From the NCBI GenBank assembly GCA_034670305.1, contig JAXMNT010000012.1, forward strand, positions 64,001-128,000: a stretch of DNA of 64,000 nucleotides, written 5' to 3'. The stretch comes from Deltaproteobacteria bacterium. GTDB lineage: Bacteria > Myxococcota_A > Polyangia > Polyangiales > Houyiibacteriaceae. Both the position numbers and the translations under genes were made by a program. This document shows, one piece after another, positions 27,742 to 28,602 of this stretch (position 1 is the first letter of the stretch; the number at the start of each line of letters is the position of its first letter). The notes beneath the pieces are model-generated. The model was not told where the DNA came from, made no database searches, and saw nothing but the letters and a program-made list of their open reading frames with translations.

Positions 27742-28602
27742 ATGCGGTTGGCGGGTGACAAGCAGGTGCGCGCGTGGAGCTCAGGGCAGGTCAAAAAGCC
27801 CGAGACGTTGAACTACCGGACCTTCAAACCGGAGAAGGACGGACTCTTCTGCGTGGAGATCTTCGGTTCGTTTCCGCCCCTGGAGCGCGGCGGGCCCGAC
27901 ACGCAGATCGGACACATCGAACTCTGCCAGCCAGTGGTGCATCCGTGGTTCCGAACGAAGCTCGCACAGCTGCTCGGCGTGTCGGTGATCGAGGTGAACG
28001 CGCTGTGCCTGAGCGAGCGGGCGATGGTGATGGACCCGGGGCCGTCGTCGCTGCGCAGGGGACAGATCGTGACGATCGCGGAGCGGGAGAACCTGCTCGG
28101 CGAATGGGGTGGCGATGTGACGCTGGCCACTGGTACCGCCGAACTGCGCGCGGTGCTTGGGTCCGCCGCGGACGAGGTGTGTTTGAACGCGGTGCCCGTG
28201 TGCCCGCCGTCGATCCGGCCCATGCAGTACCTCGAAGGCAAGCTGATCAAGACCCACGGCTTGTGCGATCTGTACCGACGCATGGTGAACCGCGCGAACC
28301 GGCTGCGGCGGCTCGTGGAACTGAACGCGCCCGAGATCATTCTCGTCAACGAAGCGCGCATGCAGCAGGAAGCGTTCGATGCGTTGATCGAGAACGGTGA
28401 GGGACCGAAGGTCATCACGGGCACCGACAAGGAACGACTCCCTTCGTTGCTCGATGCGTTCCGGGAGGTCCATGGCCCGAACGCCGACCCACTCGCCGGC
28501 GACTACCCGGACACGCCGCTCATCCGCTCGCTCGCGTTGACGCGAGGCAGCGCGGCCGCAAGTTCAGCCCCGGCCAACCCCGACGACTTCGACTTCGACT
28601 GA
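27742..28602 (+). CDS. Stand-alone RNA polymerase beta-prime (RpoC) N-terminal clamp-like protein, non-catalytic
   Basis: [43 protein letters not shown] and [34 protein letters not shown] are collinear with RpoC residues ~30-330. No Zn-ribbon cysteines, no NADFDGD. Confidence 0.9.
   Translation: [286 protein letters not shown]

Follow-up and report, generated by a model that had tools for sequence, protein, structure and literature searches.

We found in the window (the whole stretch of DNA analysed, 64,000 nucleotides) a gene that encodes a free-standing copy of the N-terminal clamp of RpoC, the beta' subunit of RNA polymerase (RNAP). We call its 286-aa product mini-beta'. Its homology to beta', its architecture, its conservation, its fold and the identity of its interface residues are demonstrated by the analyses below, and from these we infer sigma binding, the choice of sigma and an effect on transcription. 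Our favoured reading, held tentatively and at somewhat less than even confidence, is that mini-beta' is a sigma-binding mimic of RNAP that would act as a trap or buffer; the binding step is predicted from sequence conservation and complex modelling.

A free-standing gene for the beta' clamp core

The features of the locus are as follows, residues being those of mini-beta'.

27742..28602, + strand: whole mini-beta' gene, stop codon included; open ORF for a 286-aa stand-alone paralog of the beta' clamp core
27727..27736, + strand: string TGGTATGAG (TGgTATGAG), called '-10-like' earlier; sequence present, promoter unsupported
27742..27870, + strand: residues 1-43, beta' region A / zipper segment (mini 3-44 aligned to beta' 24-65)
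27871..27903, + strand: residues 44-54, short linker in place of the 4-Cys Zn ribbon (gap between beta' 65 and 101)
27904..28161, + strand: residues 55-140, clamp core (GHIEL...HPW...), mini 55-141 corresponding to beta' 101-191
28192..28233, + strand: residues 151-164, lid-equivalent segment, aligned to the beta' VLPVLPPDLRPLVPL segment
28258..28398, + strand: residues 173-219, clamp helices (coiled-coil), equivalent of the RNAP docking site for sigma region 2 and NusG
28399..28476, + strand: residues 220-245, rudder-equivalent loop and helix, from the alignment; RpoC basic residues (NGRRGKTITGPNKRPLKSL) replaced
28477..28551, + strand: residues 246-270, family-specific extension (...HG...ADPLA...), no RpoC counterpart
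28552..28599, + strand: residues 271-286, Ala/Ser/Pro linker and acidic-aromatic C-terminus (PDDFDFD), disordered, pLDDT 34-36

The ATG is preceded, two codons upstream, by an in-frame stop. In a phmmer search against the PDB the best match was beta' (4.4e-51), and the alignment ran in three collinear stretches: mini 3-44 on beta' 24-65, mini 55-141 on beta' 101-191, and mini 139-253 on beta' 230-344. The open frame and this alignment bear out an earlier note on this DNA, which had described an intact 286-aa ORF collinear with the RpoC N-terminus. The Pfam family RNA_pol_Rpb1_1 (PF04997) was found in two stretches, with an E value of 2.9e-28 and 99.6 bits for a gathering threshold of 39.7, and Rpb1 domain 1 is the only RNAP Pfam domain present. 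The NCBIfam model rpoC_TIGR (TIGR02386) scored 179 bits, below its cut-off of 963.5, so that mini-beta' ranks as a fragment-sized relative, not as a beta' subunit. Its GC3 of 0.85 lies within the range of the neighbouring genes (0.84-0.89). Finally, the stretch 27400-29000 was recovered with 0 differences in three run-level assemblies (X1, X2 and X3, possibly the source samples themselves), on one 21-kb contig each. An assembly chimera, which the note had named as a way for its claim to fail, is thus ruled out.

The gene lies among unrelated neighbours: a histidine kinase, an RND pump pair, a secreted CBM-like protein, an FG-GAP/ASPIC protein, an AlkB-like oxygenase and PanE. The rplKAJL-rpoBC surroundings of a true rpoC are missing, and the true rpoC of the genome adjoins rpoB and nusG on another contig (C47), as expected from the earlier remark that no rpoB or ribosomal-protein genes were nearby. 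No sigma or anti-sigma gene was found in this neighbourhood, nor any defence, prophage, mobile or biosynthetic gene among the neighbours. As to expression, the gene had been credited with a -10-like box of its own. The string is present, but a promoter role is not backed, as a consensus scan of 27400-28900 returned 0 promoter-like sites; the string ends 5 nt before the ATG, so that as a -10 box it would imply a leaderless mRNA. A look for RNA runs covering the region found none, which speaks neither for nor against expression.

Compared to beta', the protein begins at the equivalent of residue ~22 and has lost two internal elements in frame. Some 35 residues of the Zn ribbon are swapped for a linker of about 10-11 residues without Cys pairs, so that the N-terminal 4-Cys Zn ribbon is absent, and a hairpin of ~38 residues (beta' 192-229) is missing at ~residues 139-141, the 3' end of the clamp core. 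These are the two in-frame deletions, of the Zn ribbon and of the hairpin before the lid, that the note had pointed out, and the collinear stretches confirm both. The protein stops close to where switch 2 would begin, at a point matching beta' ~344 and far before the catalytic Mg-binding loop NADFDGD, which is absent; on this point too the earlier description was correct. Identity with the RpoC of the same genome is high in the zipper/region A segment (28/41 aligned positions) and falls to 10/26 positions in the rudder-equivalent residues 220-245.

The AF2 model of mini-beta' has a pLDDT of 87.6 and a pTM of 0.87, and its best Foldseek matches are RNAP beta' chains (TMq 0.70-0.77). In this model the extension 246-270 packs on the core (block pLDDT 88), while linker residues 47-51 are below 50. 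As judged from the sequence, the core is neutral rather than basic, most of the positive charge of the clamp being lost: residues 1-245 contain 30 K+R for 31 D+E (pI 6.5), against 64 and 47 in the RpoC N-terminal fragment (pI 9.5). This difference in pI suggests that nucleic-acid binding is de-emphasised in mini-beta'.

A rare family and its long relatives

Relatives with the same architecture exist, in very small number. We defined the mini family as proteins that start at beta' ~22, end after the rudder, carry the extension ...HG...D[PV]LA...LAL and are devoid of the 192-229 hairpin. Alignments and a gap in profile scores place the window ORF in it, together with P0002, P0003, P0123 and P0243 (length about 286-306 aa); these five proteins make up five singleton clusters among 5.8 billion proteins. 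A profile built from the five was run on 8000 candidates: the minis scored 495-538 bits, and the best of the rest reached 316 bits. P0002 (291 aa, 87% identity) and P0003 (287 aa, 86%) are the sole close orthologs among the best 120 of 2249 matches of a single-sequence search, and share with mini-beta' the same deletions and the same ends; they are the short homologs that the note had proposed to search for. P0123 (306 aa, the ORF of genome G047) and P0243 (297 aa) are more distant, at about 40% identity; the Zn ribbon is retained in both, and both show the start, end point and extension motif of mini-beta'.

Several elements are shared within the family. The start MR[LIG]A... is common to 5/5 minis, and so are lid-segment residues V153, P155, P156, R159, P160 and M161. 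The extension is conserved even between minis of about 40% overall identity, with H244, G245, D249, A252, A265 and L266 invariant. The linker that replaces the Zn ribbon is identical at 11/11 positions in mini-beta' and its two close orthologs, and the Cys pairs of the ribbon are kept in P0123, in P0243 and in a 213-aa ORF of genome G012. An acidic-aromatic tail ending in FD is found in 4/5 minis; the fifth, P0243, stops earlier, on a 2.3-kb contig. The gene context differs among the three mini loci for which flanks are available and is not conserved. Kinase genes adjoin two of these three short loci.

Other searches yielded no additional member. Only 2 of 401 genomes of the order have a mini at E <= 1e-30. 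Scans of DNA collections returned, among the best 80 of 580 and the best 80 of 568 relatives, true rpoC genes retrieved via the shared word TFKPEKDG and no mini. Run X5 (share 0.10) yielded nothing beyond rpoC fragments from other organisms and a 247-base contig that lies downstream of the gene. Four short 'RpoC' proteins whose contigs are very long (P0319, P0029, P0116 and P0328) proved to come from true rpoC genes running out of frame and were discarded. Given this extreme rarity, any role of the family would be lineage-specific. In the literature, at the level of listings and abstracts, no description of stand-alone or non-catalytic beta' clamp paralogs was found; an earlier description may exist.

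Neutral drift was simulated from the window DNA at the observed divergence, with a crude mutation model that ignores indels and takes the window sequence as the ancestor. A stop codon appeared in 752/1000 and 816/1000 sequences, and replacements as conservative as those observed in only 16/1000 and 5/1000. Together with the pattern of conserved residues, these simulations argue, indirectly, for constraint on mini-beta'.

The same genome also encodes a long relative, G000:C50, a 976-aa chimera of beta flap, beta C-terminus, beta' clamp and alpha-CTD. The gene reported at first is real, but belongs to a broader group of RNAP paralogs that are non-catalytic. The Pfam domains of the long paralogs are Rpb2_6, Rpb2_7, Rpb1_1, the start of Rpb1_2 and A_CTD. 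Like the minis, they have HPW for HIWFLKSLPSR with a 4-residue deletion and have lost the 192-229 hairpin, a loss therefore not unique to mini-beta'. They are without the catalytic loop, and they keep the beta flap with EEKLLRAIFGE, the other sigma-docking element. They differ from the mini by the beta flap, beta C-terminus, Zn ribbon, switch 2, dock region and often alpha-CTD, none of which occurs in mini-beta'; the set of flap, beta C-terminus, switch 2 and degenerate active-site segment that marks the long class is likewise missing from it. In the tree, minis and long paralogs group together against true RpoC with moderate support (78/82). Acidic C-terminal tails occur in 4/17 long paralogs examined. 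Homology between these tails and those of the minis is not supported, as local alignments compared with shuffles were mostly not significant over 24 pairs; the pairs that stood out (P0001 and P0002 with P0125) lie in low-complexity sequence.

Across the order, a post-switch-2 query detected true rpoC at about 1e-22 in 308/401 genomes, and only G000, G004 and G012 gave hits above it. In G012 the beta-like and beta'-like parts are encoded by two genes side by side. A mini but no long-paralog match with this query was seen in G047; the reverse, a long paralog without a mini, holds for G004 and G218. In current annotation the long chimeras appear as 'hypothetical protein' or 'RNA polymerase alpha CTD-containing protein', and a weak PADLOC match to PglW in a long paralog concerns the alpha-CTD part only.

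The sigma docking face and the proposed role

Region 2 of sigma-70-family factors docks on RNAP mainly at the clamp helices of beta', which NusG/RfaH NGN domains bind as well. When mini-beta' was aligned to E. coli chains (e.g. 10ma_J, 1407 aa), residues 140-253 matched 231-344 without gaps, at an offset of 91. E. coli R275, I290, I291, E295 and A302 correspond to mini R184, I199, I200, E204 and A211, and all are conserved; the manual alignment of the note, which had these residues kept, agrees with this ungapped phmmer alignment. In an excerpt of PMC8321222, the E. coli changes R275Q, E295K and A302D impair holoenzyme formation. The passage of PMC12000874 that cites Young et al. 2001 reports that isolated clamp helices act on sigma region 2.

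In mini-beta' the two helices (173-193 and 198-216) are modelled with pLDDT 93-98. Over residues 173-219, 33/47 positions are identical to the RpoC of the genome, and the identity is concentrated on the docking face: 15/15 modelled sigma contacts are identical, versus 18/32 of the other positions (Fisher p = 0.0017). When the contact list was compared with the list of invariant residues, 11 of the 15 contacts were invariant across the five minis. The equivalents of E. coli R293 and K296 are V and A, and changes of basic residues such as these, at several non-contact positions of the helices, could weaken binding. The conservation of the clamp-helix residues would be explained just as well by NusG binding or by a plain structural constraint on the coiled coil.

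Mini-beta' was modelled in complex with the sigma-2 fragment of the genome's RpoD. The model places the mini-beta' clamp helices against the sigma 2.2 helix, with a contact agreement between runs of at least 66% and a partner pLDDT of at least 75. Its ipSAE was 0.78 and that of the best control 0.00, the controls being unrelated proteins and not interface mutants; the score may reflect memory of solved holoenzymes, and shows likeness, not binding. The ipSAE mark is one reached by 58/80 solved complexes and 2/110 mismatched pairs.

Since the sigma docking face is preserved exactly, mini-beta' most likely binds free sigma factor(s). It would be a folded, non-catalytic clamp core, with zipper, lid and clamp helices kept, that competes with core RNA polymerase for free sigma, an anti-sigma-like decoy in function. 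Binding of clamp helices is known to bring sigma region 2 into the state that binds the -10 single strand; in a possible variant, mini-beta' would do the same, and the pair would form a small DNA-binding unit. The disordered acidic-aromatic end might shield a basic surface or recruit a partner. More broadly, and as a doubtful extension, mini-beta' may be the smallest of a group of undescribed 'pseudo-RNA-polymerase' regulators, dead copies of sigma-docking surfaces that would capture sigma or sigma-activator assemblies off RNAP, perhaps tied to Ser/Thr-kinase control of the contact between sigma 2.2 and the clamp. The docking surfaces proposed are the clamp helices alone in the minis, and flap tip, clamp and alpha-CTD in the long forms; the possible kinase tie is suggested because kinase genes adjoin two of the three short loci with flanks.

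Other readings were weighed against sigma binding. Mini-beta' may bind another clamp-helix factor, above all the NGN domain of NusG, and titrate it from elongating RNA polymerase. The clamp helices are the docking element of NGN, mini-beta' retains the counterparts of E. coli I290/I291 at their tip and matches RpoC at every residue of the contact face, and RfaH-bound complexes are among the best Foldseek matches, which shows the same fold only. We nevertheless hold this to be unlikely: the genome has one NusG NGN match, against 39 sigma-70 region-2 matches, this match is the housekeeping copy beside rpoBC, so that there is no specialised paralog to regulate, and withdrawing a general factor that is essential would seem a high price to pay. 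The decoy role towards NusG paralogs, as first put forward, loses ground accordingly. Quite unlikely also is an action on RNAP or on a long paralog, mini-beta' taking the place of beta' on, for instance, the beta C-terminal clamp segment or the flap, by which it could modulate RNAP assembly or form a hybrid complex. The region-A segment of beta' lies next to the beta C-terminus in RNAP, and is highly conserved here (28/41 identical to RpoC); the 976-aa chimera is in the same genome, and the split adjacent genes of G012 indicate that such pieces can assemble in trans. Against it, the long paralog of this genome has a clamp of its own, and minis and long paralogs co-occur inconsistently (G047 versus G004 and G218).

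That mini-beta' serves as a decoy for foreign clamp-targeting molecules (phage RNAP inhibitors, toxins, clamp or switch-region antibiotics) appears very unlikely. A free copy of the target can in principle soak up an inhibitor, and the gene occurs sporadically and is accessory, a pattern common among defence genes. But 0 families of PADLOC-DB 2.0 matched mini-beta' or P0123 at E <= 0.01, PHROG matches were to RpoC-like profiles only, and no defence, prophage or biosynthetic gene is a neighbour. The switch-region and fidaxomicin pockets of RNAP are formed by switch 2, the Zn ribbon and beta parts, and mini-beta' lacks all of these. The phage or toxin decoy of the note is thus disfavoured, with neither a defence-system match nor a mobile or defence context. 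We give an equally low chance to a functionless remnant, a duplicated and truncated rpoC-like gene caught before decay. The rarity of the family and the want of a recognisable promoter in the consensus scan fit such a remnant, while five intact members, about 40-100% identical and alike in start, end and extension motif, do not, nor do the stops in most simulated neutral descendants and the unusually conservative replacements, the conserved linker and clamp-helix face, the native codon bias and the confident fold prediction. Least probable is a regulator that binds DNA or RNA unaided. In RNA polymerase, zipper, lid and rudder do run beside the upstream DNA and the RNA-DNA hybrid, but the clamp has lost its basic character here (pI 6.5 versus 9.5), basic residues of rudder and switch 2 are replaced, the basic Zn ribbon and hairpin are deleted, and the tail is acidic. 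Of the selected non-catalytic mimic of the earlier note, what stands is a conserved stand-alone copy of the clamp; its decoy roles towards NusG paralogs and phage or toxin proteins are the less likely part.

Sigma-core contact via the beta' clamp helices is a central switch of bacterial transcription initiation, and all means known to us of keeping sigma off core use unrelated anti-sigma proteins. A selected, free-standing copy of the docking site would, if confirmed, represent a different principle, regulation by enzyme mimicry. Were sigma binding true, mini-beta' would be a new kind of transcription regulator; were the pseudo-RNA-polymerase reading true, a new anti-sigma or sigma-buffering principle by target mimicry would follow. 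Mini-beta' would also be a natural reagent for activation of sigma region 2 outside RNA polymerase. The long chimeras point to a repeated reuse of non-catalytic RNAP parts in bacteria, and annotation as 'hypothetical protein' or mislabelled beta' makes this class invisible in databases. Should mini-beta' turn out not to bind sigma, it remains a rare case in which a domain of an essential enzyme is maintained as a gene of its own, and this would need another explanation.

Comparison with known systems

The closest known relative is the N-terminal clamp of RpoC itself, homologous and collinear over beta' ~22-344, with the same fold and about 50% identity in the stretch of lid and clamp helices. 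RpoC is about 1400 aa long, and mini-beta', with its 286 aa, is without the Zn ribbon, the 192-229 hairpin, switch 2, NADFDGD and the downstream domains; it falls outside the length of about 1150-1500 aa set for the RpoC equivalog (TIGR02386). It is moreover encoded alone, away from rpoB, and has a neutral core and a new C-terminal extension.

Anti-sigma factors (e.g. class I domains) would have the same outcome as that proposed for mini-beta', a sigma whose core-binding surface is occupied. There is no kinship of sequence or fold between them; mini-beta' would copy the docking site instead of wrapping around sigma, and has no adjacent gene for a partner sigma. The coiled-coil beta' fragments made in the laboratory (Young et al. 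2001, as cited in a passage of PMC12000874) are the same piece of RNAP outside the enzyme, and in that passage the clamp-helix fragment raises the affinity of sigma region 2 for -10 single-stranded DNA. Those fragments are engineered, whereas mini-beta', whose binding is only predicted, is a natural conserved gene with surface elements trimmed and a tail added. Finally, the gamma subunit (RpoC1) of cyanobacteria and plastids is, like mini-beta', a natural separate polypeptide that begins with the beta' N-terminus. On the NCBIfam model rpoC1_cyan, mini-beta' scores 131.5 bits, far below the cut-off of 975.9 bits, and gamma differs from it in being about 620 aa long, in having the catalytic loop and in being an obligatory subunit encoded with rpoB and rpoC2.

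The 286-aa frame and its genomic setting

The mini-beta' gene (hereafter mini) is an open frame, with a stop codon two codons before its first start codon. The features concerned in the window are:

27742-28602 (+): mini, 286 aa
30644-31681 (+): nearby ORF of 345 aa, with coding-like GC3 and no Pfam or PADLOC family
33349-34764 (+): nearby ORF of 471 aa, no Pfam or PADLOC family

The mini protein contains RNA polymerase Rpb1 domain 1 (Pfam, E 2.9e-28) and scores 179 bits with the NCBIfam rpoC model, whose cut-off is 963.5, which marks it as a relative of fragment size, not as a beta' subunit. 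Among solved structures it matches beta' chains best (lowest E 4.4e-51), and the alignment falls into three stretches, all collinear with beta':

Mini 3-44: beta' 24-65
Mini 55-141: beta' 101-191
Mini 139-253: beta' 230-344

It follows that the Zn ribbon (around beta' 66-100) is swapped for a linker of 10 residues, that about 38 residues (beta' 192-229) are absent, and that the protein stops where switch 2 begins, far ahead of the catalytic loop. This alignment agrees with the earlier note, which had described an intact ORF collinear with the RpoC N-terminus, deleted for the Zn ribbon and a hairpin, ending before switch 2 and devoid of the catalytic loop. The third stretch is ungapped relative to the E. 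coli chains, at an offset of 91, so that mini R184, I199, I200, E204 and A211 correspond to E. coli R275, I290, I291, E295 and A302, all conserved as the note had claimed. According to passages of PMC8321222, R275Q, E295K and A302D impair holoenzyme formation.

The neighbours of mini are unrelated, in line with the note, which had seen no rpoB or ribosomal-protein genes nearby: a histidine kinase, an RND pump pair, a secreted CBM-like protein, an FG-GAP/ASPIC protein, an ORF without family, an AlkB-like oxygenase and PanE. The true rpoB-rpoC pair lies on another contig, C47, together with the sole NusG match of the genome. The -10-like string reported upstream is there, but no consensus promoter was found around the gene. 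GC3 of the ORF is 0.85 (0.84-0.89 in neighbouring genes), and the pattern shifts in the other two frames as it should if this one is genuinely coding.

Each of three separate runs (Logan contigs) has positions 27400-29000 without a single difference, within one contig of some 21 kb; these runs may be the source samples and so show reproducible assembly, not independent occurrence. In them the true rpoC sits on a different contig, which matches both flanks of the mini deletion, with 693 letters between them versus 480 in mini. An assembly artefact or chimera, an objection that the note had raised against itself, is thus ruled out as the source of the gene.

Short relatives and signs of selection

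A single-sequence search over 5.8 billion proteins gave 2249 matches. Among the best 120, only P0002 (291 aa, 87%) and P0003 (287 aa, 86%) are close to mini; the others are partial true beta' of at most 38% identity. Both have the same linker, deletions and kind of end (...DDLDFD, ...DDLEFD), and are the short homologs that the note had suggested looking for. A survey of 88 genomes from the family brought one further carrier, G047, whose 306-aa ORF (about 40% identity) is P0123, named "hypothetical protein [Myxococcota bacterium]". It starts and ends like mini (...EEEFD terminus) but keeps an intact Zn ribbon; only the subgroup to which mini belongs has lost it. P0243 (297 aa) joined the family through a profile search over 1.84 billion representatives. 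On 8000 candidates, a profile of the five minis gave them 495-538 bits, the next protein reaching 316. The family visible today consists of five singleton clusters, and among 401 genomes of the order mini is matched at E <= 1e-30 only in its own genome and G047. Very long contigs also gave short "RpoC" proteins, which were rejected as members, being frameshifted true rpoC. Genome G012 encodes an ultra-short, very divergent relative (the longest branch of the tree described below), which keeps only zipper, Zn ribbon, lid and clamp helices.

L026:1489-2409 (-), G047 contig C323: P0123 gene, 306-aa mini homolog
L026:3-1418 (-), G047 contig C323: kinase gene
L027:5083-5724 (+), G012 contig C1: 213-aa relative

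Kinase genes adjoin 2 of the 3 short loci with flanks. In G047, a membrane Ser/Thr protein kinase gene lies 70 bp downstream of the P0123 gene on the same strand, and the two may form an operon; in G012, the gene of the 213-aa relative overlaps at its 3' end with a kinase-like gene (Pkinase, E 2.8e-13) that runs convergently. In some ECF sigma factors the region 2.2-beta' contact is turned on by such kinases, according to parts of a review, PMC8999054. No Ser/Thr-type kinase lies beside mini itself, and we take the kinase link as a lead, not as evidence.

The five minis (about 40% to 100% identity) are intact, with a common start, a common end and an extension absent from RpoC, in which H244, G245, D249, A252, A265 and L266 are invariant. 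The linker replacing the Zn ribbon is identical at 11/11 positions across the three close orthologs. In a crude drift simulation (starting from the window DNA, uniform sites, kappa 2, no indels), taken to the observed divergence of 31 and 40 differences, 752/1000 and 816/1000 sequences had a stop codon, and only 16/1000 and 5/1000 had replacements as conservative as the real ones. Indirectly, these patterns suggest that the family is under selection.

The modelled sigma interface

The AlphaFold2 model of mini (66-row alignment) has a pLDDT of 87.6 and a pTM of 0.87. Only residues 47-51 (linker) and 271-286 (acidic end) are disordered, the extension 246-270 being confident, and Foldseek matches are beta' chains (TMq 0.70-0.77). 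A complex with sigma70, whose modelling the note had advised, was predicted using the sigma-2 fragment of the genome's RpoD: the score was 0.78, the best control giving 0.00, and since holoenzyme structures are solved, this measures likeness to them and not binding by this copy. Of 80 solved complexes 58 attain that mark, as do 2 of 110 mismatched pairs; contact agreement between runs was at least 66%, and partner pLDDT at least 75. In the model, the clamp helices face the sigma 2.2 helix. In residues 173-219 (clamp helices), 15/15 modelled contacts have the residue of the genome's own RpoC, as have 18/32 other positions (p = 0.0017); for the full-length protein the counts are 21/28 and 96/248. 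The core has 30 K+R and 31 D+E (pI 6.5), versus 64 and 47 (pI 9.5) in the corresponding RpoC fragment, so that the nucleic-acid-facing charge is lost and the protein-docking face retained.

The reading we lean towards, at somewhat less than even chances, is that mini is a free copy of the RNAP sigma-docking site, a putative binder that would capture one or several sigma-70-family factors in competition with core RNAP. The genome offers 39 region-2 matches. According to parts of PMC12000874, sigma region 2 has a higher affinity for -10 single-stranded DNA when bound to the clamp helices, so that a mini-sigma pair might act on DNA as well; the extension and acidic end have only conjectural roles. 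The note had also proposed a NusG decoy. This is possible, but less attractive, because the genome search returned the housekeeping NusG only. If capture of sigma by mini is true, it would be a new regulatory principle.

Long non-catalytic paralogs

A third RpoC-like gene of the window's genome encodes a 976-aa chimera:

L030:5051-7981 (-), contig C50: 976-aa beta-beta' chimera

Pfam finds in it part of Rpb2 domain 6, Rpb2 domain 7, Rpb1 domain 1, the start of Rpb1 domain 2 and an alpha C-terminal domain. Relative to the genome's own RpoB frame, its N-terminal part matches 920-1021 (49% identity, EEKLLRAIFGE included) and 1348-1442 (57%), skipping the stretch between. The protein comprises a beta flap segment, the beta C-terminus, the beta' N-terminal clamp with Zn ribbon, and switch 2; the catalytic loop is replaced by LAAGESVAVHVPLS, a degenerate active-site segment without NADFDGD, and the C-terminal end is acidic (HDFDDLDDID). 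Sigma-docking surfaces of RNAP are retained in the chimera, and the catalytic centre is not.

Among 25 of the 150 best representatives from the profile search, 17 are long paralogs without DFDGD (4 of them with acidic tails), 2 are minis, 3 have DFDGD, and the remaining 3 are truncated or otherwise odd forms of beta'. P0154, P0225, P0242, P0244 and P0245 are long non-catalytic beta-beta' chimeras of another subtype (about 800-866 aa): they lack an alpha-CTD, and their beta-like part has a Cys-rich insert (C..C...CP.C); composition suggests an origin in other lineages. The beta'-like protein P0235 (857 aa) has a long N-terminal region of GYD[KR]DG repeats and an altered catalytic loop (ALDGGMVAVHVPLS), and is apparently another inactive paralog.

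Minis and long paralogs have two derived characters in common: both lack the 192-229 hairpin, and both have HPW with a 4-residue deletion where true RpoC has HIWFLKSLPSR. A tree by maximum likelihood (33 rows, 350 columns) was built, in which support is 86/88 for minis, 94/99 for long paralogs, and 78/82 for both together versus all true RpoC. A common origin is likely but not proven, because the mini and long-paralog branches are long and may attract each other. Database names of these proteins are "hypothetical" or mislabelled as beta', and no description of stand-alone or non-catalytic beta' clamp paralogs was found in the literature at abstract level. Mini presents a known domain, the beta' clamp, as a separate gene without catalytic parts.

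With a post-switch-2 query, only the window's genome, G004 and G012 among 401 genomes of the order rise above true-rpoC level (a tally including four unpublished genomes, all at that level only, on which nothing said here relies), and genes similar to the C50 chimera are present in G004 and G012. An NtrC-type gene is convergent to the G004 paralog, about 100 bp from its 3' end. In G012, the beta-like part is a gene of its own, directly upstream of the beta' part.

L029:3079-4437 (+), G004 contig C56: sigma-54-dependent response regulator (NtrC type)
L028:7198-8121 (-), G012 contig C1: beta-like gene, 306 aa, Rpb2 domains 6 and 7
L028:5333-7387 (-), G012 contig C1: beta'-clamp and alpha-CTD gene (P0122, 622 aa), ending YDDDDFEDFD

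Split in this way, the G012 long paralog resembles a miniature rpoB-rpoC operon.
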